Below are positions 2,449-36,378 of a DNA stretch of 64,000 bases, one piece after another; within the stretch, counting starts at the first letter, position 1; every line of letters starts with the position of its first letter. The translations under genes and the position numbers were made by a program. Where the stretch lies: positions 329 through 64,328 of the forward strand of contig JBIOVI010000063.1 in the NCBI GenBank assembly GCA_044867645.1. Reading direction: 5' to 3'. Origin of the DNA: Solirubrobacterales bacterium. Lineage in GTDB: Bacteria > Actinomycetota > Thermoleophilia > Solirubrobacterales > 70-9. Under the pieces are notes generated by a model. The model searched no databases. It was not told the origin of the DNA and was given only the letters and a program-made list of their open reading frames with translations.

Positions 2449-3309
2449 CTAGGCGGCTTCGTCCTCGCCAGCCCTGCCCCTGAGGATCGCCTGGGTCGGC
2501 GATTCCCAGGGCGCAGGCTCAACCAGGCTGACCCGAGACACCCGGCGGCGCACCGCGCGTGGAAGCCAGACCCGGTAGGTGACCGCGCGGAGCATCCGTG
2601 CCCGGCGTGATGGCAGGGGTGGCTCGAGCAGCATGCGCCGCGCTGCGCGGGGAAGCTGCACGGCGATTTGCACAGGCGCCACCGTGCTCTCAGCGGAAAA
2701 CGAGGCGAGGAATCTGCGGACGGCGTCGTTTGGATCGCTGTCCGCCGCGAGCCACTCAACGTGTCCCTTCTCTTGAATCTCGTGGCCGATGCGGCCGAGA
2801 ACGCCAACCTGTTCGGCCATACGCTCGAGTTGGGCCCGGCGACTCGGATCGGGCGTCTGATCAAATCCGCCGCACCAGACGCCTCGAACCAGACGGCCGA
2901 GGATCATCGCCCCGTTCGAGCCGTACTCATCTCCGGCCGCCTGATAGGTGACAAGCAGTTCGCGCCCGTCGACCAGGCGGCCTTCCAGCGTCCAGCGCAG
3001 CTGACCGCGCCGTGGGTACACACACTCCATCGTTCCTCTCACCCGGTTTCCCTGGCGGCGAAGTCGGATGAGGCCGATGAAGTAGGGAGCGCACCACCCT
3101 GCATCGTCAGACCTGTAGGCCACGCACCAGAACCAGCGACCGAGAGGAGTACGCTGGGCCTGGAGGCCGTCGAGCAATCGTACGAGCGCCTCGCGCGCCA
3201 GAACTCCGATCAGGGTAAGCGCAAGCGCCACCCCCAATTCGGGGACTGAAAGACCCGCTAGAACTGCCATGCGTCGCCACCTCCACCGACCGAGCCTTGG
3301 GCGCGCCAA
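2449..3309 (-). CDS. hypothetical membrane-anchored protein (orphan)
   Basis: 286-aa ORF with an N-terminal TM helix (AVLAGLSVPELGVALALTLIGVLA). No motif recognised. Start and true extent uncertain in a high-GC context. Confidence 0.4.
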   Translation of the reverse strand: MARPRLGRWRWRRMAVLAGLSVPELGVALALTLIGVLAREALVRLLDGLQAQRTPLGRWFWCVAYRSDDAGWCAPYFIGLIRLRRQGNRVRGTMECVYPRRGQLRWTLEGRLVDGRELLVTYQAAGDEYGSNGAMILGRLVRGVWCGGFDQTPDPSRRAQLERMAEQVGVLGRIGHEIQEKGHVEWLAADSDPNDAVRRFLASFSAESTVAPVQIAVQLPRAARRMLLEPPLPSRRARMLRAVTYRVWLPRAVRRRVSRVSLVEPAPWESPTQAILRGRAGEDEAA

Positions 3310-3594: not shown

Positions 3595-4236
3595 GTGGGC
3601 CGGATCTACGACGCGACCTGGGGGAGGGTCTTCTCGGCCCTCTACGACAGCATGCTGCGCGGCACCGAGGAGGCGGGGCTGCGCGACCGGCGCCGCGAGG
3701 TCCTCTCCGCGGCGCGCGGTCGCACGATCGAGATCGGCGCCGGAACCGGGGCGAATCTCGGCCTCTATCCGGCGGCGGTCAGCGAGCTGGTCCTCGCCGA
3801 GCCCGACCCCCATATGCTCAAGAAGCTTCGTATGAAAGTGGGGGAAGGCGGGGTGGACGCCGAGGTCGTGGCGGCACCGGCACAGAGCCTGCCCTTTGCC
3901 GACTCGAGCTTCGACACGGCCGTCTTCACCCTGGTCCTCTGCACGGTTTCCGATCCCGCCGCCGCGCTCGCCGAGGCGGCGAGGGTCCTGCGGCCCGGCG
4001 GCAAGCTGCTCTTCGTCGAGCACGTCCGCGCCGAGAACGCCGACCTCGCCCGCTGGCAGGACCGGCTCGAGCGGCCATGGCGCTTCATCGGCGACGGTTG
4101 CCACTGCAACCGCGACACCGTGGCGACGATCGAAGCGTCACCGCTGACGGTCGAGCGGGTCGACAAGGGCCAGCTGCCGAAGTCGCCGCCGCTGGTGCGG
4201 CCCCTGGTCTGGGGCAGCGCGACGCTGGCCGCTTGA
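3595..4236 (+). CDS. class I SAM-dependent methyltransferase
   Basis: 213 aa. SAM motif I TIEIGAGTGANL, post-I and motif III region LRPGGKLLFVEH (Methyltransf_11-like). Confidence 0.8.
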   Translation: MGRIYDATWGRVFSALYDSMLRGTEEAGLRDRRREVLSAARGRTIEIGAGTGANLGLYPAAVSELVLAEPDPHMLKKLRMKVGEGGVDAEVVAAPAQSLPFADSSFDTAVFTLVLCTVSDPAAALAEAARVLRPGGKLLFVEHVRAENADLARWQDRLERPWRFIGDGCHCNRDTVATIEASPLTVERVDKGQLPKSPPLVRPLVWGSATLAA

Positions 4237-4277: not shown

Positions 4278-4297
4278 AACGCACGATAATGGCGGTT
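4278..4297. repeat. left copy of 20-bp direct repeat AACGCACGATAATGGCGGTT (attL-like)
   Basis: Exact match to 12327-12346. The downstream sequence diverges (CTCCGCTTG). Confidence 0.9.
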
Positions 4298-4422
4298 CTC
4301 CGCTTGTTGCGTCCGGATGGTTTGCAAGGTTCGCCGCGTGAATCAGACCATCTGGCAAGGGCGGGGTTTCCAGGGGTTTTTTGAGGCATCCGTCGCCCTT
4401 GCCAAGACTTTAGGAGGCGGCT

Positions 4423-4752
4423 ATGCGCGCGTCTTTTCCGACGCAATTCGACGGGGTCATCCTCGGCAAAAGTAGGGAGGCGGGGTCTTTCGACACTCCC
4501 GACGGCGAGGTCAAGTTCGGGGATGCTTACGAGCTGTCGTTCGAGAGTAGTGATGGGCTCACCCAAACTTGCCGAGTTGGCCTTAAGCAGCTCGATGAGG
4601 CCTCCGACTTCGATGTCCAGAAGGCCGGCCCGTTCAGGGCTGTTCGGGTTGTCGGCGACGTTCAGGTCAGTGACAAAGGGGGGTACCTCCGGCTCACGTC
4701 AGTGAGGCTGCACCCGTCTTCTGACCCGGCCAACGCTGGCAAAAAAACCTGA
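4423..4752 (+). CDS. prophage protein, 109 aa (candidate ssDNA-binding gV analogue; function speculative)
   Basis: ATG 7 nt after TAGGAGG. Soluble, beta-strand-rich looking sequence, first gene after attL. Size is in the range of inovirus ssDNA-binding proteins, but no motif was recognised. Confidence 0.6.
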   Translation: MRASFPTQFDGVILGKSREAGSFDTPDGEVKFGDAYELSFESSDGLTQTCRVGLKQLDEASDFDVQKAGPFRAVRVVGDVQVSDKGGYLRLTSVRLHPSSDPANAGKKT

Positions 4753-4770
4753 TCGGGGTGGGCTTCCGAC

Positions 4771-5388
4771 ATGGAGCAGCGCCCGGCGATTCGTCGTCGT
4801 CTCCTCCTCGTTGGCTTCTTGCTCTCGCTTGGCGTCTATGCGCTGGTGGGGCTGGCGGTCTTCGCAGGTCGGGCTCTGGCTGACGAACCGCCTGTCTATA
4901 CGCCACCCGCCGAAATCGCCTCGGAGCCACCGGCTCCAGAAGGCCAGCCGTCGTGTCCCGACCTCGAACTCGAAGCCTTCGAAGGGGAAGACGCGGCGGC
5001 CGGCGAAGTGCGGCTGTTGCGAGGAGAGTCGGCTGAGGCGTGCGCTGCAATCTCGGCCCGACTTGACCGCATCCGGGAACGCCTCTGGTGGATGGTGGCA
5101 GAGGCACTGGTCGCCGGGGGCAGGGCCGAGCTCAGCCATGAGCTTCTCGAGCAGATCGGGGAATCTGTCGGCGAACCGACCTGTCCGATGCCTTGCCCGG
5201 TGTTGATCGACGGCGACTCTCCGGTCGAAGTCCAGGATTCCTCTTCGCAGGAGTACAACGACGAATTGGTCAGCGCGGTCGATGCCTCCGGAGAAGCGAG
5301 CAAGGCGGCGCTCTGGTTTATCGCGGGGCTCCTGGTGGCCGGCGTCATCGCCTACATGATCATCAGGGCGGTGCGCGATGGGACGTGA
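4771..5388 (+). CDS. prophage type-I membrane protein, 205 aa (signal peptide + acidic ectodomain + C-terminal anchor)
   Basis: N-terminal RRRLLLVGFLLSLGVYALVGLAVFAGRALA-DE, acidic Cys-containing middle, C-terminal TM ALWFIAGLLVAGVIAYMII followed by RAVRD. Confidence 0.6.
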   Translation: MEQRPAIRRRLLLVGFLLSLGVYALVGLAVFAGRALADEPPVYTPPAEIASEPPAPEGQPSCPDLELEAFEGEDAAAGEVRLLRGESAEACAAISARLDRIRERLWWMVAEALVAGGRAELSHELLEQIGESVGEPTCPMPCPVLIDGDSPVEVQDSSSQEYNDELVSAVDASGEASKAALWFIAGLLVAGVIAYMIIRAVRDGT

Positions 5389-5445
5389 TGCGCAGTTCGG
5401 CATCGTCATCCGGCGGCGGTCGTTCTTCTGCGTCTCGCGCCCGGC

Positions 5446-5874
5446 ATGGGTCGCCTGTTCACGTGCAGGTGTTGTGCTCAGGTGGTGGCGCTGATGGCGA
5501 TCGCTCTCGCGGTGTTCGTCTACCTGGTGGTCCGGATCAGTTGGTGGCTCACGGGATTCGTCTTCCGAGGGGCGCAGCCCCGATCAGCGCGGTGGTCGCT
5601 CCAGCGCCCGTTGTTAGGGCGCTGGTCGCCCTCATCTGTAAGGAGGCTGCGCGGCCTCGCTAACCACGGTCCGGATGCAGTACTTCCTCGCACCGCCACG
5701 ACCTCTACACGACCTACCCGCTCGATGTTGGTCGGGTCGGGGGCGATCTCCCCGGCCCCTGATTTGGGGGCGTTCACCGCGGGCTTGGAAGTCATGGTCT
5801 TCACCGCACTATTCACGGTCAGCGCGTTGCTGGTGCTGATGTGGATCATAAAAATGATGAGGGGCAGTGAGTAA
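5446..5874 (+). CDS. prophage membrane protein, 142 aa (may be two smaller products)
   Basis: N-terminal TM (VVALMAIALAVFVYLVV) and a coat-like C-terminal TM (MVFTALFTVSALLVLMWIIKMMRGSE). Locally low-GC codons. Start uncertain. Confidence 0.45.
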   Translation: MGRLFTCRCCAQVVALMAIALAVFVYLVVRISWWLTGFVFRGAQPRSARWSLQRPLLGRWSPSSVRRLRGLANHGPDAVLPRTATTSTRPTRSMLVGSGAISPAPDLGAFTAGLEVMVFTALFTVSALLVLMWIIKMMRGSE

Positions 5875-5911
5875 GCGGTGCGGGCCTCTCGACACAGAAA
5901 GGAGGTGCAAC

Positions 5912-6154
5912 ATGAAGATCATCAAGTCCTTGGGGGGCAAGCTGTCCCTCGCACTCGGCGTCTGCATGCTGACTGCGCTGGCCCTGGCCAGTTCGGCATC
6001 GGCGGCGCTGACGGTGGACGCGAAAGATTTCACCGAACCGGTGGAAACGCAGCTCGGCACGGCGGTCCCGATTGTCGTCGGGTTCCTGGCTGCGGTCTTC
6101 GTGGTCGGCTTCGTGATCCGATGGATCATCAAGCGGGCTCGTTCCGCCACCTGA
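5912..6154 (+). CDS. major coat protein precursor (pVIII-like), 80 aa
   Basis: ATG 5 nt after AAAGGAGGTG. Signal peptide ends ASSASA/A. Predicted 49-aa mature peptide has an acidic N-terminus (D,D,E,E), the helix AVPIVVGFLAAVFVVGFVI, and a basic tail RWIIKRARSAT. Confidence 0.75.
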   Translation: MKIIKSLGGKLSLALGVCMLTALALASSASAALTVDAKDFTEPVETQLGTAVPIVVGFLAAVFVVGFVIRWIIKRARSAT

Positions 6155-7713
6155 GGCTCGGGGTCCTGGGAGTCGTTTTCGGCGTGCTGGTTCTGGCGCT
6201 GCTGGCGACTCCCGGGACTGCCTCTGCGTTCATCGGTGAAAGCGTCGTGCTCAACCCCGCCAAAACCGACCTGACGGGACCGGCGAAAACGATCTTGACT
6301 AACCCAACGTTTCTTCCGGAGACGACTGATGGAGCGGCAGCACTTGGCGGGGTCGCGGAGGAGTCGGCCGCAGCGGGAGTCTTTGAGGGGGCGGGCATCT
6401 TGCCCGCACTTGCGTCGGTTGTGTCGTTTGGAGTCGGCACGGTGATCGGCTCTGAGATTTGCAAAGTGATCGGCATCGAAGGGTGCTGGTATTTCGGTTC
6501 CGAAGGAGCCGACCCGGCGACTGGTGTTGCGGAATACCATTGGAATTGGATAGGCGCTGGCGAAGGTAAATACCCGTTCAACTGGTACTGGTCGCGTGGT
6601 GAAGCGGGCTACAAGTACGGATCGGGGGCGAAAAGCGCCTGCGGGAACGTGATTCCAGGTGGCATGAGCCTTTTCGATGCTACTGGCGGGAATACGGCGT
6701 GCGGGGTCGGCGAAAAAATCCCGACGCCGAACGGTCTCCCGTGGCGGTGGGCAATGGAGAATCGTGTGCTCGACTATCACGCCGTGGATGACCCGGGCAC
6801 TTCGAACTACGCCTACACGGCTCCCTCGAATTGGTCGGAAAAACTGGCGAAACAGTTGAAAGAACACTCCGGGGACGCGGCCGGGCGTGTCGGGCAGAAG
6901 ATCGCATCCAAAATCGGAGGTTCAGGCGTGTCTGACCCGTACCCGCACAAAGTCACGATCCCTTCTTGCAGCGGTGAGTCGTGGATCGAATGCAAAGGCG
7001 ACCTTGAAGAACTCGAACTGGTGCCGGAACGTGTGGAGCTCGACTGGTCGGATGCCCATCTGGACCTCGCGCCTGACGAGGTCGTTGAACTCGATCCGGC
7101 TCCGTCGACGAAAGTCGAGGTACCGAGTGAATCGGCGGTCGTCGTCACTACCAACCCTGATGACGCCGGGATGCCGATCGTCGTTCCTCAGCCCGAACCA
7201 GGGGAGACCTACAGCCATTACGCGGCGCGCCTGAACTCGGGGCTCTCTCCCGAACGTCACGATCTGGAGGCTGCTTTCGTCTCGCCCTCAACCGGGCCGA
7301 ACGGAGTTGTCTCGGTCCAGCCCGAGCCGGAGACCAGGCTGGACCCTTCAACGACGCACAAAGTCGATGTGTCGACCAACCCAGCGGACGCCCCGATGGT
7401 GGCCGCCCCCTGGTCGCCGCCGTCGATCCCGTCGATCAGCATGGCACCCCTGACGACCCTGGGCAGTCCGTGCTCTGTTTTCCCCTTCGGCTTGCTCTGC
7501 TGGCTCGGTGAAGGACTTGCTCAGTTCAACACCGCAGGCGTTTGTCCGCACGCGGCGGTCCCCGTCAACGACGAGGCCGATTTTGAACTCACCTTGTGTG
7601 GTGAAACCTCCGACCAGGTGATGGGGTACGTGCGGCCGGCGTTGCTCCTGGTCTTCATTGTCGGTTGCGGCTTCTTGTTCGCAAAGGCGACGAAGGCGAT
7701 CGGCGGCGACTGA
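6121..7713 (+). CDS. adsorption / minor coat protein (pIII-like), about 530 aa
   Basis: ATG at 6121 inside the 611-aa ORF gives signal peptide RHLRLGVLGVVFGVLVLALLATPGTASA. The Cys-rich ectodomain is followed by a Pro/Glu/Thr-rich repeat region and a C-terminal anchor ALLLVFIVGCGFLFAKATK. Confidence 0.65.
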   Translation: MDHQAGSFRHLRLGVLGVVFGVLVLALLATPGTASAFIGESVVLNPAKTDLTGPAKTILTNPTFLPETTDGAAALGGVAEESAAAGVFEGAGILPALASVVSFGVGTVIGSEICKVIGIEGCWYFGSEGADPATGVAEYHWNWIGAGEGKYPFNWYWSRGEAGYKYGSGAKSACGNVIPGGMSLFDATGGNTACGVGEKIPTPNGLPWRWAMENRVLDYHAVDDPGTSNYAYTAPSNWSEKLAKQLKEHSGDAAGRVGQKIASKIGGSGVSDPYPHKVTIPSCSGESWIECKGDLEELELVPERVELDWSDAHLDLAPDEVVELDPAPSTKVEVPSESAVVVTTNPDDAGMPIVVPQPEPGETYSHYAARLNSGLSPERHDLEAAFVSPSTGPNGVVSVQPEPETRLDPSTTHKVDVSTNPADAPMVAAPWSPPSIPSISMAPLTTLGSPCSVFPFGLLCWLGEGLAQFNTAGVCPHAAVPVNDEADFELTLCGETSDQVMGYVRPALLLVFIVGCGFLFAKATKAIGGD

Positions 7714-8009
7714 TGCTCACGCTGCTCTCCGACATCTGGCACGGCATCCTCGATATTCCGTACCTCGTGGTCGCCCTTCTGGTCGAATCGATCAATGGCT
7801 GGATTCTGATCCTGGCGGCGATTGTCTCGGCCATCCTGGCCGTGCTCCCGAGCTTCCCGAGCATCCCTACTCTTGACGGTGACATTTTGGCTGGCGTCGC
7901 CTGGTTCCTGCCGATCAGCGCGATGCTGGCTGTGTTTTCCACGTTCGTGGGGGCCTTCGTCATCTGGCTTGGCGTCTCGGCGGCCCTTCGCTGGGGGAAG
8001 ATGTTGTGA
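7713..8009 (+). CDS. pVI-like polytopic minor coat / membrane protein, 98 aa
   Basis: ATG overlaps the upstream stop (TGATG). Three hydrophobic segments. Lies directly after the pIII-like gene, as in Ff phages. Confidence 0.6.
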   Translation: MLTLLSDIWHGILDIPYLVVALLVESINGWILILAAIVSAILAVLPSFPSIPTLDGDILAGVAWFLPISAMLAVFSTFVGAFVIWLGVSAALRWGKML

Positions 8010-8131
8010 GCCGGTCAGAGCGGCTCAGGGATGGCCTGGCGGCCTTTCTCGGCCGACGGGTTCGTGGCGTCGTCACCCTTCTCGTGTTGTTTGTGCTGCT
8101 GGGTCAGTTAGCGAAGGCGGCCCTCGGGTGA
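8006..8131 (+). CDS. 41-aa single-TM mini-protein (hand-translated)
   Basis: GTG overlaps the upstream TGA (GTGA). Sequence VSRSERLRDGLAAFLGRRVRGVVTLLVLFVLLGQLAKAALG. Below the ORF-track size cutoff. Confidence 0.45.
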   Translation: MSRSERLRDGLAAFLGRRVRGVVTLLVLFVLLGQLAKAALG

Positions 8132-8256
8132 GATGGATCGTGGCCATGGTGCTGGCGGCCGTCGCTGGCTCGATCGCATACAGCCTCGGGGCCGGTCCCG
8201 AGGTTGCCTACGTGGTGAGGTCTATCGTCCGCCATCTTGCCGGGGGGTACGGGTGA
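8128..8256 (+). CDS. 42-aa single-TM mini-protein (hand-translated)
   Basis: GTG overlaps the upstream TGA (GTGA). Sequence VRWIVAMVLAAVAGSIAYSLGAGPEVAYVVRSIVRHLAGGYG. Its TGA overlaps the GTG of the Zot-like gene. Confidence 0.45.
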   Translation: MRWIVAMVLAAVAGSIAYSLGAGPEVAYVVRSIVRHLAGGYG

Positions 8257-9110
8257 TACGTCTTGTCACCGGTCCGCTCGGGACCGGCAAGAGCTACTAC
8301 GGCACCAGGAAGGCGGCTCAGGCCATCCGAGAAGGCAAGATGGTCGCGACCAACTTCGATCTCGTGCCCGACTGGATTGACCAGGTCGTTCGCCATGGTC
8401 GTCTCAGGAAGAACAGTCGCAAGGTCAACGCTCGCGCGGACCGGTTTTCGAGGAGGTACATCCGCATCGAGACGATGCAGGAACTGATGCAGCTTCGGGT
8501 TCGCCCGGAGCCTCCTTGGGCGAAGGAGATTGAACCTGGCAAGTGGCAATTGCGGGAAGGCGTTCTCGTCGTGATCCTCGATGAGGCGCACCGCTGGATG
8601 AATGCTCGTAGTTGGTCCCGAGAGGGCCGCGAAGAATTGCTCGAATTCTTCGCACTGGCACGGAAGATGGGGATGGAGGTTTACCTGATCGCTCAGCGGG
8701 CCGAGAACCTCGACGTCCAGGTGCGCGAGCTGTTCGAGGACCACATCAAGCTCACCAACCTTCGCCGATCAGCGCGACTCATGGGGATTCCCGTGATCCC
8801 GTTCAACTATTTCATTGCGGGCTGGCGCAACCACGCCTACCCAGACGAGGTCGTGAAGACCGAGCGCTACAGACTCGGCTGGGAGAAGAGGCTCTACGAC
8901 ACGATGGACACCGTCAGCTTCACGGAGGGCTCGAAGGGCGGTGGCGGCCTGTACCTGCCGCGAGACGAGTCCGACGCCCTGATCGGAGATGCAGCGGCGG
9001 ACGGCGCGTCAGCGCCGTCGCCCCTCGCCCCGCCGGCCGCCGGCGGATCGGTCGCGGATGACGCTGCCGACCCGGGCGAGAGGCCGTCGGTCCCAGACCC
9101 AGCGTTGTGA
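8253..9110 (+). CDS. pI / Zot-family P-loop assembly ATPase, 285 aa
   Basis: Walker A VTGPLGTGKS at residues 6-15 and Walker B VVILDEAH. The stretch DEAHRWMNARSW..ELLEFFALARKMGMEVYLIAQ is collinear with M13 pI as I recall it. No TM helix in this ORF. Confidence 0.85.
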   Translation: MIRLVTGPLGTGKSYYGTRKAAQAIREGKMVATNFDLVPDWIDQVVRHGRLRKNSRKVNARADRFSRRYIRIETMQELMQLRVRPEPPWAKEIEPGKWQLREGVLVVILDEAHRWMNARSWSREGREELLEFFALARKMGMEVYLIAQRAENLDVQVRELFEDHIKLTNLRRSARLMGIPVIPFNYFIAGWRNHAYPDEVVKTERYRLGWEKRLYDTMDTVSFTEGSKGGGGLYLPRDESDALIGDAAADGASAPSPLAPPAAGGSVADDAADPGERPSVPDPAL

Positions 9111-9217
9111 CATCCCAGGATAATGGTGACCAAGAAAGTCAACAAATGCGGTGGAGGAGCAGGGTCCTCTAACAGCCCATCTGGTCTCAAATATGAGACA
9201 GGGCTAGGGAAGACTTT

Positions 9218-10183
9218 GTGATCGACGCGGCGGGGGTGGATACCTGGTCGGTCTGCTGGTACTTGCCGGAGGAAGGCCCGGCGCATCGAGCAATGGAGGC
9301 AATGGCGACCGAGCGCGCAGCACGCAGCTTTCTTCTCCCAGAACCGGTCGAGGGGCATCGTGTCGGCTGGTTCCCTGGGAGCAGGATGATGTTCGCCGAG
9401 GGGCATCCGATACCCGGAGCTTTGGCGCCAGCTGTGGGTCTGCCGGCAGCACTGAATCGCCTTACACATGCTCTCGCTGATCGCGGCCTTCAAGTGCCCG
9501 ATCAGGAGTGCCGTTTTGGCTGGAGCAAGGGCCTCCATGGTGTTCGGCGTCTCGACGCCACTGTTGATCTGCGGTTCGATTCTCCAGCCGAGGGCCTCGC
9601 GGCGCTGGCAGGGGTGGCAGCCCTGCCGCTTCCGCGAATGAAAACGCAGGTAATGCGAGAGGTTGGCGGTCGGCGCGTCGAGACGGTCTATTTCCGAGGA
9701 ACGAGCGGTAAGAGGGTGCTCGGTAGGTGGTATGACAAGGGCATCGAGAGCGGCGACGCTGTGCGAGGCCTGCATGTTCGGCCTGAGGATCAGCGTCGCT
9801 TCTCTAAAGACACGAGACCAACGGTCGAGGAGGTTGCATCTACGACTTATGTTCGGGATGCTTTCGTGCGAAGATTCGAACCACTCTGGCGAGCGGCAAA
9901 GGGGGTCAAGGTGGGTGGCGTGGTCGAGTTAGCGCACCGGTTGGCGGAGCTTCAAGATGACGGCGTGATAACGGCGGCGGAAGCTAAGCGGATCGCCGGG
10001 CATCTTGTTCTTGATTCGATCGACGCACATCGCCAGTCACGCTCGCAGTGCTACAAGGACAGGGCGGCGGCGCGCCGTCATGGGCTCGTCCTTGCAGATG
10101 GCGTGCTGGACGAGGTCGAGGTTGATCTAGGGGATGTGCTTGAGCATGCGCTTGATTCAGATCTCTGGGGCTGTCAGGGCTAA
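9218..10183 (+). CDS. rolling-circle replication initiator, Rep_trans (RstA/pT181 RepC-like) family
   Basis: 321 aa with GTG start. Motifs resemble the family signatures: VRRLDATVDL (R-hDhxhD) and RVLGRWYDKGIE (hYDK, catalytic Tyr region). Confidence 0.7.
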   Translation: MIDAAGVDTWSVCWYLPEEGPAHRAMEAMATERAARSFLLPEPVEGHRVGWFPGSRMMFAEGHPIPGALAPAVGLPAALNRLTHALADRGLQVPDQECRFGWSKGLHGVRRLDATVDLRFDSPAEGLAALAGVAALPLPRMKTQVMREVGGRRVETVYFRGTSGKRVLGRWYDKGIESGDAVRGLHVRPEDQRRFSKDTRPTVEEVASTTYVRDAFVRRFEPLWRAAKGVKVGGVVELAHRLAELQDDGVITAAEAKRIAGHLVLDSIDAHRQSRSQCYKDRAAARRHGLVLADGVLDEVEVDLGDVLEHALDSDLWGCQG

Positions 10184-10278
10184 CTTGAGTTAGCTGACCT
10201 TTCGGGGCTTCCTTTGCTCCACGGGATTTAGCGTAAAGGTGGGGGGGTGGCTCTAGGGTTCTGAGGCCGGCCCCCTGT

Positions 10279-10312
10279 CCCTCAGCGAGGCACCTCTCAT
10301 ACTCGCTGAGGG
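10279..10312 (+). promoter_or_regulatory. stem-loop (11-bp perfect stem CCCTCAGCGAG / CTCGCTGAGGG, 12-nt loop) in the prophage intergenic region
   Basis: Read directly from the sequence. It lies 96 nt after the rep stop. Candidate origin or packaging hairpin. Confidence 0.5.
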
Positions 10313-10324
10313 GTACCGGCACAA

Positions 10325-10368
10325 GGGCGCGGGCGGTTTCCGATACGGCCGCCCGCGCCCACTTTTTT
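10325..10368 (+). terminator. rho-independent terminator-like hairpin (12-bp GC stem + T6)
   Basis: GGGCGCGGGCGG - 12 nt - CCGCCCGCGCCC followed by ACTTTTTTG. Downstream of the morphogenesis and rep genes. Confidence 0.65.
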
Positions 10369-10709
10369 GTCAGCCGGACTTCATGATCTGGAGCATTGGA
10401 ACGACACGTTTCGTCTGGAGCATGCCCATGGCGATCACCTCCTCCCATTAATTCGCTCAAGCTGCCGCCCTGCTCGGCAGGTGCGGCGCCAGGTGCTCGT
10501 GAACAATGCTCCAAAGCGCTTTGACCGGTCAGTTCCAAATGCCGCAAAATGCGAGGAACTCACTCAGTATTTGGTTAACTACTCGGCGTTTCAGCATCCA
10601 ATCCGTTTATTGAGGAGGCCGCCGTGGTTCCTAAAAAAAGGGCAAGGCGAGGAAGGTCCGGGGTCAAGGGCGGCCGGAGAATGAAGCGAGTGCCCGGGGA
10701 GGCCCTAAG

Positions 10710-11420
10710 TTGAGTCAACGCGGAGAGACGAAGAAGGCGAGGGATCGGGCAGAGGGTCTTATTGACCCGAACTTGAATGTGGTCGTTAAAGATCCGCTGC
10801 GAGTCCAGATTCTGGCTATCGCGATCCAACGCTCAATCAGTCCCAGCGAATTTTCTAGAGAGTCGGGTTGCCCCTTAAACACGACTTCCTACCACTTCAA
10901 GGTCCTTCTGAAGCATGGCTTTATTGAGCTTGTGGACCACGTGCAAGTTCGCGGGGCGACTAAGCACATGTACCGGGCCACCAAAAGCGGCTTTATTAGC
11001 GATAAGGACTGGGGCCAGGTCGCACAGGCTGTTCGACCTGGCATTGCCGGAGCAATCTTGCAGGACTTCAATGCACGTGTTGTCCAATCGATGGAGAGCG
11101 GCTCCTTTTACTCACGAGATGACGCCTGCATGTTTTGGATGCCGCTCGCCCTTGACGAGCATACGTGGCCGAAGTTTGTAGAGATGCTGTCTTGGGCAAT
11201 CGCGGAAGCCAAAGAGTTCGAGGTTGAGACGGTAAAACGCCGAGCCGATGGGAAGGAGGACTCCTGCATTCCCGTGACTTTCGCCATTGCTGGTTTCGAG
11301 TCGCCTACTGCGGCAGAAGTCAAGGCCAAAGGCAAGTCGAAGGCCAAGCGGAAGCGATCCCGTGCCACAAGGAAGGATAATCGTGAGGGTCGGCGTAGGC
11401 AGAAACCAGGCCGGACGTGA
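10710..11420 (+). CDS. ArsR-family winged-HTH regulator with long C-terminal extension and basic tail, 236 aa
   Basis: TTG start 7 nt after GGGGAGG. HTH_20-like segment LRVQILAIAIQRSISPSEFSRESGCPLNTTSYHFKVLLKHGFIELV. Lys/Arg-rich C-terminus. Confidence 0.7.
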   Translation: MSQRGETKKARDRAEGLIDPNLNVVVKDPLRVQILAIAIQRSISPSEFSRESGCPLNTTSYHFKVLLKHGFIELVDHVQVRGATKHMYRATKSGFISDKDWGQVAQAVRPGIAGAILQDFNARVVQSMESGSFYSRDDACMFWMPLALDEHTWPKFVEMLSWAIAEAKEFEVETVKRRADGKEDSCIPVTFAIAGFESPTAAEVKAKGKSKAKRKRSRATRKDNREGRRRQKPGRT

Positions 11421-11686
11421 GTTCGCTCCGATCAGTCATTCGTCACGATGTTCGCCTGGATATCCTTTCCTGCCTTCTGGCCGGGGAGCCTTTGAAAATC
11501 GCTGATTTGAGCGACAGGCTTAGTTGCTCCCAGCGAGTCGTCACCCATCACGTCAGGGTCCTCAGCGTGGCGGGGCTTTTGGCCCGAACCTTTGCCCGTA
11601 GGGGACAGAAACCGACCTACGTAACTTGTCTCGATGGGCACCCCGATTGGATCTCACGAGCCATTAGGGATCGTCGCTCCCGCTGA
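11417..11686 (+). CDS. small ArsR-family winged-HTH regulator, 89 aa
   Basis: GTG overlaps the upstream TGA (GTGA). HTH segment VRLDILSCLLAGEPLKIADLSDRLSCSQRVVTHHVRVLSVAGLL. Confidence 0.65.
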   Translation: MSSLRSVIRHDVRLDILSCLLAGEPLKIADLSDRLSCSQRVVTHHVRVLSVAGLLARTFARRGQKPTYVTCLDGHPDWISRAIRDRRSR

Positions 11687-11864
11687 GAGGATTTGTCTAC
11701 ACTGCATTTGACTCATGGGCATTGAGATCATCGCCGTTCGCTACGGCTGCGACTGGATCGAAAGGAGTCAAGGTGGCGGGAGCAATTGAGTTGGCCGTCT
11801 TTTTGGTCGTCGTCGGCTGCGTCGTTCTTGGCGTTGTTCAAGCTGCTTCTCTCGGCTGAGTCGC

Positions 11865-12182
11865 TTGTCCTTCGAGGTCGTCGCTGTTCGCTGGTCGTGC
11901 TGGGCCTGCGAGGCCACAGCCATTACCGCTCCGGGGCAATTGCCGGATGGCTGGTTCGAGTGGCCAGCGCCGCCGTGGCGGGCTCATCACCAGTCGCGCC
12001 ACGCTTGCCCGGATCACTCAGCCGACGCTCGGCAGATTCACCATCGGCAGTGGTCAGCGCAGCTAGGCCGTACGCATGCTGTCTCGGTCCAGGAGTACGA
12101 GGCTGCAAAGGTTGCATTGCAGCACGCAACCTTTCTGCTAGATCGCCTCAAGTTCAGCGGCGGGCGAACCGGTGACGGGTAA
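11865..12182 (+). CDS. hypothetical Cys/His/Trp-rich protein, 105 aa
   Basis: TTG-start ORF. CWAC ... HACPDH spacing hints at metal binding. A competing frame (11786-12175) looks less protein-like. Confidence 0.35.
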   Translation: MSFEVVAVRWSCWACEATAITAPGQLPDGWFEWPAPPWRAHHQSRHACPDHSADARQIHHRQWSAQLGRTHAVSVQEYEAAKVALQHATFLLDRLKFSGGRTGDG

Positions 12183-12326
12183 GCGTGAATCAGACCGTAG
12201 CCACCGGCTCGCCCGCCGCTGTGGTGGCTATTGTCGTCTCGCGGTCGGCGTGAACTCGGCCTTCGAAGCAGGAAGCCCTAATTTTCGGTAGGTCAGGCGT
12301 GGACTTTTAGGCCGAAATCTCCTGAC

Positions 12327-12346
12327 AACGCACGATAATGGCGGTT
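12327..12346. repeat. right copy of 20-bp direct repeat AACGCACGATAATGGCGGTT (attR-like)
   Basis: Exact match to 4278-4297. Confidence 0.9.
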
Positions 12347-12355
12347 ATGTGAACT
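12328..12355. other. dif-like 28-bp Xer recombination site ACGCACGATAA-TGGCGG-TTATGTGAACT
   Basis: 11-6-11 layout with inner ATAA / TTAT half-palindrome. The right arm matches the E. coli dif XerD arm TTATGTTAAAT at 9/11 positions. The left arm plus spacer lie within the 20-bp repeat. Confidence 0.55.
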
Positions 12356-13098
12356 CAGCCAATTCCGAGGACGCGGATGCGGGCGCTGTCGACCCTCGAC
12401 CCCGGTGCGCAGTTGTACGAGGTGAGACTCACGGTCAGGGTCTGCTCGGTCGGACTCTCGAAATTGATCCTCGGTTCTCCGCCGATGCCGGTCTTGACTG
12501 ACTCCGGGGCGCTCGACCCGGACTCCAACCAAGCGCCGCCGGCCTGCTGGCCGTTCACGTAGAGATGGACCTCGACACCGCAGTTCCCGTTCTGGCCCGC
12601 CTGAAGCGTCGCCTCGATCTGGCCAAAGACGACGTCGAACTCGCCGGCACGCGCCACCCAGGCGCCGCCTTGCAGCGGATAAGGCTCGCCCGTCGCGCCC
12701 TCGACACTCGCGGAGCCGCCGCTAGCGCCGGCGACAAATCCAACCGGTTCCTTCATATCCGCGGGCTCGATCGATTTGTCCTCGATCTGGCCGCCACCCA
12801 CGGCACCATCTCCGATCTGAGCACGACCGACCGCACCGGGAGCGATCTTGCCGCGAATGACGGCGCCCTCGGCGATTTGATCGCTCCCGACGGCACCGGG
12901 AGCGAGTTTGCCCCGTTTGACAGCCCCGGGGGCGATTTTCCCGGCCTTCACCGCCCGCGCGGCGATGTTGCCGCTGCGAACCTTGAGCTGGTTCGCGGCG
13001 TAGACGCTGCCGGACAGGGCGAAAAACAGCGCGAGCGTGGCGACCACGTTTGCGTAAGTCAGCTTGGATCGAAGTCGCATTGAAGTTCTCCAGTTCAT
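12355..13098 (-). CDS. secreted repeat protein (degenerate G-K-I-A-P-G-A-V repeats + C-terminal beta-rich domain)
   Basis: 247 aa. Signal-like N-terminus LTYANVVATLALFFALSGSVYA. About 7 degenerate repeats (GKIAPGAVKR, GKLAPGAVGS, IAEGAVIR ...). Confidence 0.65.
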   Translation of the reverse strand: MNWRTSMRLRSKLTYANVVATLALFFALSGSVYAANQLKVRSGNIAARAVKAGKIAPGAVKRGKLAPGAVGSDQIAEGAVIRGKIAPGAVGRAQIGDGAVGGGQIEDKSIEPADMKEPVGFVAGASGGSASVEGATGEPYPLQGGAWVARAGEFDVVFGQIEATLQAGQNGNCGVEVHLYVNGQQAGGAWLESGSSAPESVKTGIGGEPRINFESPTEQTLTVSLTSYNCAPGSRVDSARIRVLGIG

Positions 13099-13240
13099 GG
13101 CGCGTAGCCCGGCTCGCCGGGGCCGCTTCTAGTGGCGGCGGCCCCCTCGCTTCGGCATCGAACGCTCGCCGGGGTAACCGATTCGTTGCAACTACCAAGT
13201 AATGGCTGGCGATTCGGCCGTCGCGCTTGAACTTTGGCGC

Positions 13241-14005
13241 TCAACCCGCTTCGTCGATCGCCGATTCGATCTCACCAGCGGAGCCCGGAGTTCCGATCGT
13301 CTTCAGACCGGCGGTGCCCGGGCCTTCGACCGCGAAGGACGGCGTGCCGCTGAAGCCGAGCTCCTGCGCTTCGGCGGTCGTCCGATTCACCTCGGCGAGC
13401 ACGGGCTTGCTCTTGCGGTCGGTGTTCCACTGGGCGATGTCGGGTACGCCGGCACCTCTGGCGATTTCGGTTAGGAAGGCATCGTTGACGTAACCCGAGG
13501 CCTCGGCGCCCTGGTTGCGGTAGAAGAGCTCGACGAAGCTCCAGCCGCGTCCCTGCCTGCCGGCGGCGATCGCCGCCGCCCCGGCGGGGGTCGATTCCTC
13601 GCTGATGATCGTGTAGTTGCGAAAGTCGATCGTCGCTTCGCCGCTGCGCACCTTGGAGTCGATCACGTCGGGGAGAATTTCTTCCGCGAACCCTTTGCAG
13701 ACCGGGCACTGGAGGTCGCCGAACTCGACCAGCGTCACCTGTGCCGCCGGCTTCCCGAGCACCATCCCCTTCTGCGGAATCCCCTTCAGTTCGGTGCCGA
13801 CAACGCCCGTGTCCTCGAGCTTGGTGTCGCCACCGCTGCCCTGGTTCTGGCTGATCACGATCAGGACGGCGACCGCGGCGACCGCCAGGAAGGCGGCGGC
13901 GCTGCCGAGCTGTATCAGCCGCTGCCGCCGCTCCTTCCCCTCGATCTCGCCTTCCTCGCGCAGCCGCGCCTCGCGGCGCTCCTCCCTTGCACTCCTCCCA
14001 CTCAC
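13241..14005 (-). CDS. DsbA-family thiol:disulfide oxidoreductase (membrane-anchored)
   Basis: Thioredoxin-fold CPVC active site (FGDLQCPVCKGF). Charged N-terminus plus a TM helix. GTG start chosen at the GTGA overlap with the VKOR stop. Confidence 0.75.
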   Translation of the reverse strand: MSGRSAREERREARLREEGEIEGKERRQRLIQLGSAAAFLAVAAVAVLIVISQNQGSGGDTKLEDTGVVGTELKGIPQKGMVLGKPAAQVTLVEFGDLQCPVCKGFAEEILPDVIDSKVRSGEATIDFRNYTIISEESTPAGAAAIAAGRQGRGWSFVELFYRNQGAEASGYVNDAFLTEIARGAGVPDIAQWNTDRKSKPVLAEVNRTTAEAQELGFSGTPSFAVEGPGTAGLKTIGTPGSAGEIESAIDEAG

Positions 14006-14433
14006 GCCGGCCTGCCGACGTAGCCGACCATTCGCACGGCGTTGAGCCCGAACAGGATGGTCATCAGCACGGCGCTCGCCACGCACCACTGGCAGATCGC
14101 TTCGATCTTGAACAGCTCCAGGTAGGTCAGGTAGACGCTGAAGCCAAAGCCGGCCAGCGAGAGCCCGAAGCCCGCCATGCGGGCGCCGTCACCGCGCAGC
14201 AGTGCCGCGACCAGCAACAGCACGTAGCCGGCGATCCCGAAGACGGCGACGTCGATGCCGAGCAGATGCGAGTAGGTGCTGTTGGCGACGGTCTCGCAGC
14301 CGCTTCCTCCCGCCAGGCAGACAGGAGAGCCTCCACCGGAGTCGGCGATCGCGATGTAGGCGGCAACGCCGATGCCGAAGGCCGCGACAAAGGTCGCGAA
14401 CGTTCGCAGCGTCCCCTCGGCCGGCGCTCTCAT
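14002..14433 (-). CDS. vitamin K epoxide reductase (VKOR) family protein
   Basis: 143 aa with 4 TM segments. Loop cysteines SPVCLAGGSGC and the TM CxxC motif (CQWC). Adjacent to the DsbA-like gene. Confidence 0.75.
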   Translation of the reverse strand: MRAPAEGTLRTFATFVAAFGIGVAAYIAIADSGGGSPVCLAGGSGCETVANSTYSHLLGIDVAVFGIAGYVLLLVAALLRGDGARMAGFGLSLAGFGFSVYLTYLELFKIEAICQWCVASAVLMTILFGLNAVRMVGYVGRPA

Positions 14434-34685: not shown

Positions 34686-35765
34686 TTAAGCAGCTTCTGC
34701 GACCGGCGGAGGAGTCTCTTGTGGGGCTTTTTCTGCGCCGATGCCGAGCGCTGCGCGGATCTTTGCCTCGATCTCGCTCGCGATCTCGGGATTGTCGACG
34801 AGGAACTGCTTGGCGTTGTTGCGTCCCTGGCCCAGCCGCGTCTCGCCGTAGGAGAAGAAAGACCCGGATTTCTGCACCAGATCGTGCTCGATCCCGAAGT
34901 CGATCAGTCCCCCCTCGCGGGAGATGCCGACCCCGTACTCGATGTCGAATTCGGCCTGTTTGAAGGGCGATGCGACCTTGTTCTTGACGACTTTGACCCG
35001 AACCCGGTTGCCGACCGCCTCGGTCCCTTCCTTGAGGGTCTCGATGCGGCGGATGTCGAGGCGCTGCGAGGAATAGAACTTCAGCGCCCGACCGCCCGGC
35101 TGGGTCTCGGGCGAGCCGAACTGGACCCCGACCTTTTCGCGGATCTGATTGGTGAAGAGGCAGACGGTGTTCGTCCGGTTGAGATTCCCGGCGAGTTTGC
35201 GCATCGCCTGCGACATCAGTCGCGCTTGGAGGCCGACGGTCGTGTCGCCGATCTGGCCATCCAGCTCGGCTTTCGGCGTCAGCGCCGCGACCGAGTCGAT
35301 CGCGACGACGTCGACCGCGGCGGAGGCGATCAGCCGGTCGGCGATCTGCAGCGCCTGCTCGCCGTAGTCGGGCTGGGAGACCAGCAACTCGTCGGTGTCG
35401 ACGCCGATCGCCCGTGCGTAGATCGGGTCGATCGAGTGCTCGGTGTCGATGAAGGCGCAGATCCCGCCACGACTCTGGGCCTCGGCGATGATGTGGTAGA
35501 TCAGCGTCGTCTTTCCCGACGACTCCGGACCGAAGATCTCGACGATCCGCCCGCGCGGCACCCCGCCGATCCCCAGCGCGAGGTCGAGCGAGAGCGCCCC
35601 GGTCGGGATCGCTTCGATCGGGATTGCGCTGTCGGCGCCGAGGCGCATCAGCGCGCCCTGGCCGAAGTCCCGCTCGATCTGGGTCACCGCCGCCTCGAGC
35701 GCCGCGTCCTTCGCCTTGGCCTCCTTGGCCGAGGCATCCTTCAAAGCCGCTTTCTTGTCTGCCAT
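34686..35765 (-). CDS. recA: recombinase RecA
   Basis: GPESSGKTT Walker A and the canonical RecA sequence throughout. ATG at 35765 after GAGGTGAT. Confidence 0.95.
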
Positions 35766-35775
35766 CTCAATCACC

Positions 35776-36378
35776 TCACTGCCGCCCGCCTGTGGGCAGC
35801 TCGACTTGCGCCAGCGGGGTGTACTGCGCACCCTGCGGCTGGAGTTCAGAACGGTAGAGAGTCATCCGGCGGCAAACCGCAGGCTGCAGCAATGCTTGCG
35901 GTAGCGCCCGAGGAGGTCGCGTGACGGACGCTGGACGCTTCGAGCCGCGTTCCTCGCGGCGCACCCTGGCCACCGTGACGTGCGGCCAGAACGGCCGCTT
36001 CTCCGGCTCGTAGAGGTGTGCTTCGATCAGCTTCTCCTCCACCACCGCCTGGAGCTTCGCCGCGGCGGGCGAGGCGACGGGGATCGCGAAGAGGCGCGGC
36101 CGGCCGCGCTCCGGTCGCGGCACCGGGTGCCCTAACTCCATCCTGGGCGCAGGCCCGGCGCTCCCCTCGACGATCCCCGCCAGTCGCGGGATCTCCTTCT
36201 CCGGCAGGTAGCCGAGAAACGCAAGGGTGATGTGAAGCGATGCGGGTGCAACCGGCCGTAGCGCCGGATCGACAAGCGCCTCATGCCCCCAGGCAACGAT
36301 CTCCGTTCGCACCCGATCGGGCAGGTCGAGCGCAACGAACATCCGTGCCCGCGGACTCTTCAACCTCTCCTTCGCCAT
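35776..36378 (-). CDS. thpR: RNA 2',3'-cyclic phosphodiesterase (2H family)
   Basis: Two HxT motifs (HITLAF, HVTVAR). The long ORF was trimmed to the ATG at 36378. Confidence 0.75.

Follow-up and report, generated by a model that had tools for sequence, protein, structure and literature searches.

An inovirus-like prophage without an integrase, probably integrated at dif by host XerC/XerD in an actinobacterium of the order Solirubrobacterales

A 64,000-nt stretch of a Solirubrobacterales genome (contig JBIOVI010000063.1; hereafter the window) carries an 8-kb inovirus-like prophage between two copies of a short repeat. The right-hand copy opens a 28-mer that is very likely the dif site of the host, and with nearly as much confidence we regard the element as an integrase-less filamentous phage that integrated at this actinobacterial dif through the host recombinases XerC and XerD. 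It has the features of an integrative mobile element that exploits Xer (IMEX): a recombinase of its own was not found, one dif and one hybrid site mark its ends, and a dif-like phage attachment site (attP) is seen in relatives. IMEX-style integration at a dif-like Xer site had been proposed in a first-pass annotation made from the sequence, and the proposal has held up, given the pair of boundary sites, a recurrent family of prophages at the same place and the attP junctions found among them.

The insertion and its attachment sites

The sequence AACGCACGATAATGGCGGTT forms an exact 20-nt direct repeat (family D15) on the plus strand at 4278-4297 and 12327-12346, its copies 8,049 bp apart; both were recovered by a repeat search and by a mismatch pattern search. 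The right copy leads into attR (12328-12355, plus strand), an intact host dif-type site recognized by matrix and by its counterparts at empty sites. It is composed of the XerC arm ACGCACGATAA, the spacer TGGCGG and the XerD arm TTATGTGAACT, in an 11-6-11 layout with the inner symmetry GATAA/TTATC. The left copy is part of attL (4279-4306, plus strand), which reads as a hybrid: the host-type XerC arm ACGCACGATAA and the spacer TGGCGG are followed by a degenerate, phage-derived right arm, TTCTCCGCTTG. The right arm of attR matches the XerD arm of E. coli at 9 of 11 positions and that of B. subtilis, TTATGTAAACT, at 10 of 11 (reference arms from PMC3025954). The first-pass annotation had described the right copy as an 11-6-11 Xer-type site with inner symmetry, had arrived at the same count against E. 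coli, and had called the left copy hybrid and the right one intact; the sequence reads as described, with the repeat covering the XerC arm and spacer before the arms differ.

Short two-copy repeats are often chance matches, and this general caveat is what can be said for a reading in which the 20-nt repeat is a coincidence or an assembly artefact and bounds no discrete mobile element. However, the left 19-mer, allowing up to three mismatches, occurs in the 64 kb only at the two att places, where shuffled sequences gave an expectation of 0.00. Two independent assemblies (L001 and L002) agree on the att junctions, relatives have empty sites, and the same boundaries are shared by about 17 homologous elements. 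We consider this reading refuted, with a probability close to nil. The pattern GATAA-N6-TTATG, with at most one mismatch, has a single occurrence in the window.

Syntenic relatives were reached via homologues of the methyltransferase encoded to the left of the site. In two of them, L003 and L004, the methyltransferase is 82-84% identical and the genes follow the same order as in the window: thiolase, SDR, methyltransferase, site, DsbA, VKOR, hydrolase, AhpC and PPIase. Both carry an uninterrupted AACGCACGATAA TGGTGG TTATGTGAACTT and no prophage in the spacer of about 100 bp between the methyltransferase and DsbA genes, the rest of which cannot be aligned with the window. These are empty sites. 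Consequently, the right 28-mer of the window belongs to the host, and the adjoining 8 kb on its left were inserted. A comparison with empty sites had been suggested at the outset, and the uninterrupted 28-mer at the same position in both relatives is its result.

The inserted body spans 4298-12326 on the plus strand, as delimited by gene calls, GC content and its absence from L003 and L004. Counting one repeat copy, the unit is 8,049 bp long; every supported gene lies on the plus strand, and the GC content is 0.57-0.65, compared with 0.65-0.70 in the flanks. By its gene content the element is an inovirus-like prophage, a name we use because it has the set of coat, pIII-like, pVI-like, Zot/pI and Rep_trans genes. 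Along with the pI/Zot ATPase, the pVIII-, pIII- and pVI-like proteins and a rolling-circle replication (RCR) initiator, it has the genome size (below 10 kb) and single direction of transcription of an inovirus. The region had already been called a prophage, and the gene set now specifies the kind.

About 17 related prophages occupy the same site in the same orientation, with the hybrid site first and the intact site last. In every case, the phage genes run from a hybrid site at the methyltransferase end toward an intact site at the DsbA end. Both ends are visible in seven further complete attL/attR pairs (L019, L127, L128, L131, L139, L161 and L168), while attL alone is in range in L025, L036, L059, L126 and L141, and attR alone in L015, L125, L129, L130 and L137. 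Where the 19-mer of a genome continues into an arm that is not that of dif, a homologous prophage in the same order and orientation was present in all four other cases (L019, L025, L036 and L059). The central region of the phage follows that of its host (TGGTGG, TCTTGG or TCATGG), with a 1-nt difference in two cases, as expected if homology in the central region is required. Further elements were gathered by fetching contigs that bear the replication initiator gene (Rep) and by a metagenome scan with the Rep alignment; Rep homologues (n = 302) are often on contigs of 6-8 kb. A viral collection scanned with the Zot protein or the attL/attP pattern gave no match; scanned with the Rep alignment, it gave four loci. 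Two family members, L175 and L176, stand in IMG/VR as uncultivated viral genomes (UViGs) trimmed exactly at the att repeats.

Some loci carry traces or distant relatives of this family. L039 (3697-3846) retains 50 residues of the phage Rep beside an intact site, on the side of the XerC arm, and so holds the remnant of a decayed prophage. More distant relatives, with Rep 45-51% identical, are found on metagenome contigs of the MWV*/MWW* series (L144, L149, L151, L152, L156, L160, L162 and L169). Terminal overlaps of 102-127 nt mark such contigs as circles, one of them 7.6 kb long. Several are circles of 2-2.8 kb or tandem units of about 2.7 kb that apparently hold little beyond Rep and are possibly miniphage or satellite replicons. 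A matching dif-like site was not found in the distant-relative circles.

The phage side of the exchange can be read where two phage ends meet. In L133, host DNA is followed by attL, by a whole phage and then by ATGCACGATAA TGGTGG TTGATCGTCCA joined to the phage left end. After this junction, 122 of 123 nt equal the sequence that follows attL, and the 60 nt upstream are unrelated. It is a phage-to-phage (attP) junction of a tandem or circular form. Another contig, L135, is circularly permuted and runs from Rep through the site to the left-end genes up to Zot. All 14 of the hybrid or attP sites share the XerC arm and spacer, and their right arms are unrelated. By analogy, the attP of the window phage would read ...CTCCTGACAACGCACGATAATGGCGGTTCTCCGCTTG..., with CTCCTGACAACGCACGATAATGGCGGTTCTCCGCTTGTTGCG as its predicted junction and CGCCGATCTAACGCACGATAATGGCGGTTATGTGAACTCAGCC as the predicted empty attB. 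Sequence differences between phage and host narrow the place of exchange. In L127 and L133, for example, position 2 of the phage XerC arm is T against C in the host, and it is the host base that attL carries; a second kind of difference, at spacer position 4, separates attL from attR in L127 and L139. The crossover thus falls after arm position 2 and no later than the opening bases of the right arm, an interval that includes both Xer cleavage positions. As a separate observation, a short motif, GTCCG/CGTCC, turns up repeatedly at 4-20 nt inside the arm region contributed by the phage (4307-4320 in the window). It is also on the phage side of the hybrid sites of L036, L059, L126, L127, L131, L133, L139 and L141, and the sites that have it are otherwise unrelated in sequence.

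The 28-mer as the probable dif site of the Solirubrobacterales

Candidate sites were scored with a position weight matrix; the 29 actinobacterial dif predictions from which it was built (Kono et al. 2011) lie near GC-skew shift points. Over both strands of the 64 kb, 12328-12355 ranks first with 14.2 bits, and the runner-up reaches 0.7; the background is -54.7 +/- 11.6, and the left hybrid scores -21.2. The commonest XerD arm of the lineage, TTATGTCAACT, is identical (11/11) to the predicted arm of M. smegmatis, M. luteus and Acidothermus. Conexibacter and Rubrobacter, the Thermoleophilia/Rubrobacteria genera that we looked up, are missing from the supplementary dif list of Kono et al. 2011, which leaves this lineage without a direct published dif.

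Conservation was assessed by scanning 185,579 species genomes with the left 19 nt only, which gave at least 120 stretches. Among the matches listed, nearly all are from metagenome-assembled genomes (MAGs) of Solirubrobacterales or Thermoleophilia, with one stretch per genome. They include more than 110 Solirubrobacterales genomes with one copy each and 18 records titled 'chromosome', again with one stretch each, and about 115 of these listed matches go on with TTATGT[C/A/G][A/T]AC[T/C]. A lone MAG has two matches, which belong to two diverged copies of the whole locus and point to a mixed two-strain bin. Conservation ends within 2-3 nt outside the 28-mer. On the complete Solirubrobacterales chromosome OY969702.1 (2.56 Mb), the site is near 624.6 kb, and OY970268.1, OY969812.1, OY970260.1 and OY970321.1 are further complete chromosomes with the site. 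Uniqueness in the genome had been set as a check in the first-pass annotation, and among the matches listed the site passes it, the sole double being the mixed bin. The dif-like character that had been claimed is likewise supported, with the window's site as top hit for the actinobacterial matrix and an XerD arm equal to published predictions.

The 28-mer could instead be some other conserved intergenic element of the methyltransferase/DsbA pair, such as an operator or the target of another recombinase. The site does always lie in the same gene neighbourhood (methyltransferase in 99 loci, DsbA in 112), so that a local role could account for its conservation, and its spacer is atypical. However, the XerD arm is identical at 11 of 11 positions to actinobacterial predictions near GC-skew shift points, and the site has the GATAA-N6-TTATG inner symmetry, the top matrix score and, among the matches listed, one copy per genome. 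Integration at dif is also a known behaviour of integrase-less phages. The strand polarity described below, which is independent of transcription and aimed at the site, argues in the same direction, and we rate this alternative as very improbable.

Over the 52 kb to the right, plus-strand genes (-0.017) and minus-strand genes (-0.023) alike have a negative GC skew on the top strand. The word GGGNNGGG is directed at the site in both classes as well, by 15:4 in plus-strand and 30:10 in minus-strand genes. As genes of both orientations share this polarity, which points at the site, we link it to replication rather than transcription. In the left flanks (about 4-11 kb), the bias of GGGNNGGG is lost or weakly reversed (3:3, 6:5 and 11:9) and the skew ranges from -0.013 to +0.019; a ratio of about 1:3 would be expected on the left if the site lay inside a replichore, where there is no switch. 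A position at the replication terminus would fit this polarity, which is clear on the right flank and weak on the left. The first-pass annotation had pointed to an excess of minus-strand genes to the right, about three quarters, and we found approximately 72% among the genes supported by GC content at third codon positions (GC3). It had also mentioned ftsK 26 kb away, which is true and carries no evidential weight; RecA (34686-35831) and FtsK (38543-40738) were confirmed by NCBIfam.

A specific motif among the FtsK orienting polar sequences (KOPS) is not claimed. A pooled 8-mer analysis picked GGGGAGGG-like words, and GGGNAGGG points toward the site by 15:4 on the right and 2:1 on the left, but generic G-rich bipartite words have the same bias of about 3:1 (GGGNNGGG, 50:17). 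Since these control words are equally polar, what we claim is strand polarity. For the KOPS-like motifs suggested to converge on the site, the analysis gives polarity toward the site on the right flank and no specific motif separable from G-rich words.

Integration without a recognizable element-encoded recombinase

Searches of the supported open reading frames (ORFs) and the large antisense ORFs of the element against Pfam, PHROGs and NCBIfam turned up neither an integrase nor a serine recombinase or transposase. The tyrosine-recombinase motif was absent from all six frames of the window and of 1.36 Mb of related loci. Precomputed Pfam tables of the related copies list only Zot and a faint PASTA match and no recombinase, and none was found in the approximately 17 related prophages. 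The absence of an integrase, noted in the first-pass annotation, is thus what both the profile searches and the six-frame motif search returned.

In the model that we propose, the 28-bp host dif sits between the convergent methyltransferase and DsbA genes, and attP repeats the XerC arm and central region of the host but has a right arm unrelated to the XerD arm. Host XerC/XerD would recombine attP with dif within the shared 17-20 bp. The left product would be a hybrid site of host XerC arm, spacer and phage arm, and the right product an intact dif, presumably still functional, beside the host DNA on the XerD side. The layout expected from such recombination (left host DNA, hybrid site, element, intact site, right host DNA) is the one observed. 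We infer XerC and XerD as the catalysts from the build of the sites; either of the two might make the first strand exchange.

A different possibility is that the phage integrates by a function of its own that we failed to recognize, such as the Rep_trans nuclease or a small zinc-ribbon-like protein, and that the 28-mer, be it dif or not, merely serves as its target. Site-specific DNA cutting is indeed established for Rep_trans proteins, and several conserved proteins of the element have no assigned function. The zinc-ribbon-like protein (105 aa; 11865-12182, plus strand; recognized by family alignment) is among these. It has invariant C12, C15, C48 and H51 in a zinc-ribbon-like N-terminal half, followed by two long helices, and its gene is the final gene in every element of the phage family. 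In all 13 elements with a downstream site, the matched coding region ends 140-151 nt before the att site. Eleven homologues were found, none of them detectable outside the phage family, and the protein has no Pfam or NCBIfam match and no significant PDB match in a fold search. However, Rep_trans enzymes nick their own origins and leave no 17-27-bp direct repeats, and we know of no precedent for a Rep_trans or zinc-ribbon-like protein as an integrase. The segment shared between phage and host is exactly the XerC arm and central region, the products are one intact and one hybrid Xer-type site, and phage spacers track host spacers. We consequently hold integration by such a function to be unlikely.

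Several points nevertheless weigh against integration by host XerC/XerD at a dif in the terminus, and they should be set beside the evidence in its favour. Other actinobacterial dif predictions have a central region in ...ACA, which TGG[T/C]GG does not resemble. On the left flank, polarity is weak and was read over 10 kb or less. A pooled skew over 117 loci does flip, from +0.005 on the left to -0.010 on the right, but we downgraded it as independent evidence because nearly all loci have the same gene order. The putative placement at the terminus draws on local strand polarity. No attP or empty-site reads were found for the exact strain, attP being seen in relatives. Neither xerC nor xerD is in the window or in the fetched loci, and their presence in the host is taken from general knowledge of Actinobacteria. 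Finally, with several element proteins lacking an assigned function, including the zinc-ribbon-like protein beside attP, a hidden recombination function is conceivable.

Known elements that exploit dif offer close parallels to the integration proposed here. The attP of TLCphi, a Vibrio cholerae satellite phage and TLC-type IMEX, closely resembles dif over the XerC arm and central region, whereas its XerD arm has diverged strongly (PMC5357621). Like the window element, TLCphi has no integrase, integrates at dif with the same att layout and regenerates a functional dif. However, its host is gammaproteobacterial, and it encodes XafT, a DUF3653 helix-turn-helix (HTH) protein that activates XerD, whereas the two HTH genes of the window element are found only in the window copy and have no DUF3653 domain. 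TLCphi is also a satellite without morphogenesis genes, unlike the window element with its coat/pIII/pVI/pI set. The gonococcal genetic island (GGI) of Neisseria, too, is flanked by an intact dif and a hybrid whose XerC arm and central region resemble those of dif and whose XerD arm diverges (PMC5357621). It differs in being a 57-kb type IV secretion island of a betaproteobacterial host that follows an FtsK-dependent, XerD-first route.

Among filamentous phages, CTXphi, VGJphi and XacF1/Cf1c share the Zot/pI ATPase with the window element, and dif integration by host XerC/XerD is known for them. CTXphi also has an initiator of the Rep_trans family (RstA), and tandem or episomal forms regenerate attP in the Vibrio and Xanthomonas inovirus IMEXs as in the present family. 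In contrast to the window element, CTXphi uses a folded single-stranded attP and an XerC-only exchange, and the VGJ-type attP keeps a real XerD arm, without spacer homology on the XerD side. The hosts of all these phages are diderm Proteobacteria, and their pI is at most 32% identical to that of the window element. Propionibacterium phage B5, which to our knowledge is not integrated at dif, is another point of comparison. This phage and metagenomic inoviruses (PMC6813254) resemble the window element in being inovirus-like with Gram-positive or actinobacterial hosts.

TLCphi requires XafT, and no DUF3653 match was found at E <=1 among the element ORFs, where the zinc-ribbon-like protein is the one conserved candidate close to attP. 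We consider it rather doubtful, but worth stating, that the zinc-ribbon-like protein is a new Xer activation or directionality factor that lets XerC/XerD use an attP lacking an XerD arm without FtsK. Speculatively, a protein in that role would be a functional analogue of XafT in Actinobacteria, structurally unrelated to it.

Phage genes, host locus and significance

The remaining genes of the prophage, all on the plus strand, follow a conserved order. The first in gene calls, at 4423-4752, encodes 109 aa and stands at the position of an ssDNA-binding protein gene; homologues in L036 and L059 are 68-92% identical. Next comes a 205-aa protein (4771-5388) that has hydrophobic N- and C-terminal segments, is kept across the phage family and is probably a virion or membrane protein. 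A candidate major coat protein, pVIII-like and 80 aa long (5912-6154), was recognized by sequence features and a weak Pfam match to Inovirus Coat_B (E 0.015, below threshold). Its signal peptide ending in ASA, acidic N-terminus, single transmembrane helix and basic C-terminus would make it a textbook inovirus major coat protein. The pIII-like adsorption protein (530 aa; 6121-7713) has a signal peptide and a C-terminal membrane anchor, and its homologues in related elements are 34-55% identical. Its residues ~276-345 form a weak PASTA-like stretch (Pfam E 3e-4, below threshold), and the same faint match is recorded for the pIII-like protein of one relative. PASTA domains bind peptidoglycan, and such a stretch would suit adsorption to a monoderm host. 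A pVI-like small hydrophobic protein of 98 aa was called at 7713-8009.

The Zot/pI morphogenesis ATPase (8253-9110), an inovirus hallmark, was identified by Pfam (PF05707, E 1e-14), by PHROGs (phrog_1675, 'protein I of M13', E 2.6e-23) and by distant tblastn matches to inovirus Zot/pI of at most 32% identity. The 321-aa protein at 9218-10183 is best matched as a rolling-circle replication initiator with a Rep_trans-type fold. Its AlphaFold model (predicted local distance difference test, pLDDT, 91) has the RCR initiator 4CIJ as best PDB match (E 2e-6, probability 1.0), and an R-x-YDK motif is invariant in the family alignment (A1). After Rep, an accessory module of about 1.5 kb (~10200-11700; GC 0.57-0.58) holds two ArsR/HTH_20 genes, namely an HTH_20 (ArsR-like) regulator assigned by Pfam (10710-11420) and a small ArsR/SmtB-type HTH regulator (11417-11686). 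The module is present only in the phage copy of the window and stands where relatives have a small zinc-ribbon and transmembrane ORF of 67-72 aa ('MREV..CxxCGRR'). Overlapping the end of the 105-aa zinc-ribbon-like gene is a long hairpin (12155-12221, plus strand) with 20-nt arms that are 95% complementary, found by an inverted-repeat search (I11) and by alignment. It is kept across 13 elements with compensatory changes and may serve in packaging, as a single-strand origin or as a terminator. About 50 nt ahead of the XerC arm stands a conserved CCTAATTTTAAGTAG-like box.

The host genes on either side of the site are a SAM-dependent methyltransferase on the left (3595-4236, plus strand) and a DsbA/thioredoxin-like lipoprotein on the right (13241-14089, minus strand), each a conserved neighbour in the loci counted above. 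Where methyltransferase homologues have a named source, it is Solirubrobacterales. Exact-protein look-up of the window FtsK and of one 443-aa protein gave no match, probably owing to start-codon differences. Inserted DNA gathers on the XerC-arm side: the distance from methyltransferase to site ranges over 5-8,095 bp, and that from site to DsbA has a median of 49 bp in relatives.

Other inserts are found around the locus. In the window, about 0.9 kb (12356-13228) separates the XerD arm from DsbA, and most relatives are without it. It contains ORF241 (241 aa; 12355-13080, minus strand), which has a signal-peptide-like start and 10-residue repeats. All that recurs, beside the DsbA stop, is the hexamer TGAACT. 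Ten other genomes have unrelated inserts of 0.2-1.3 kb between site and DsbA, and no second hybrid Xer-type site bounding the insert was found here or in those 10. In L087 (1995-2474), an HTH gene distantly related to the regulator of the window phage lies between site and DsbA. Between the SDR and methyltransferase genes of the window, a 273-286-aa ORF without a family match (2449-3309, minus strand) is, among the syntenic loci, present only in this genome and its two Logan assemblies.

How integrase-less elements hijack XerC/XerD to enter dif is known almost wholly from work on Proteobacteria (Vibrio, Neisseria, Xanthomonas and Enterobacter), and our literature search found no paper combining IMEX, XerD and any word beginning with 'Actino'. 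While the mechanism and the type of element are known, the phylum Actinomycetota is new for a dif-integrated inovirus IMEX, and a whole phage family stands behind this case. The large inovirus survey of Roux et al. 2019 (PMC6813254) describes prophages of this sort solely by their non-canonical direct-repeat att sites; integration at dif explains these 'non-canonical att' inovirus prophages in viral catalogues. For the Solirubrobacterales, an abundant and mostly uncultured soil order, the comparison yields a well-supported dif consensus, ACGCACGATAA-TGG[T/C/A]GG-TTATGT[C/A/G][A/T]AC[T/C]. It also reveals hundreds of small filamentous phages that form one family and have a monoderm actinobacterial host, with a natural series of attL, attR and attP sites in which spacers track the host and mismatches in arm or spacer narrow the crossover. 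Xer hijacking thereby becomes testable in Actinobacteria, where the XerD arm identical to that of M. smegmatis suggests a tractable surrogate host. Together, the lineage, the size of the family, the att variants and the gene beside attP provide an entry point for Xer biology in Actinobacteria.

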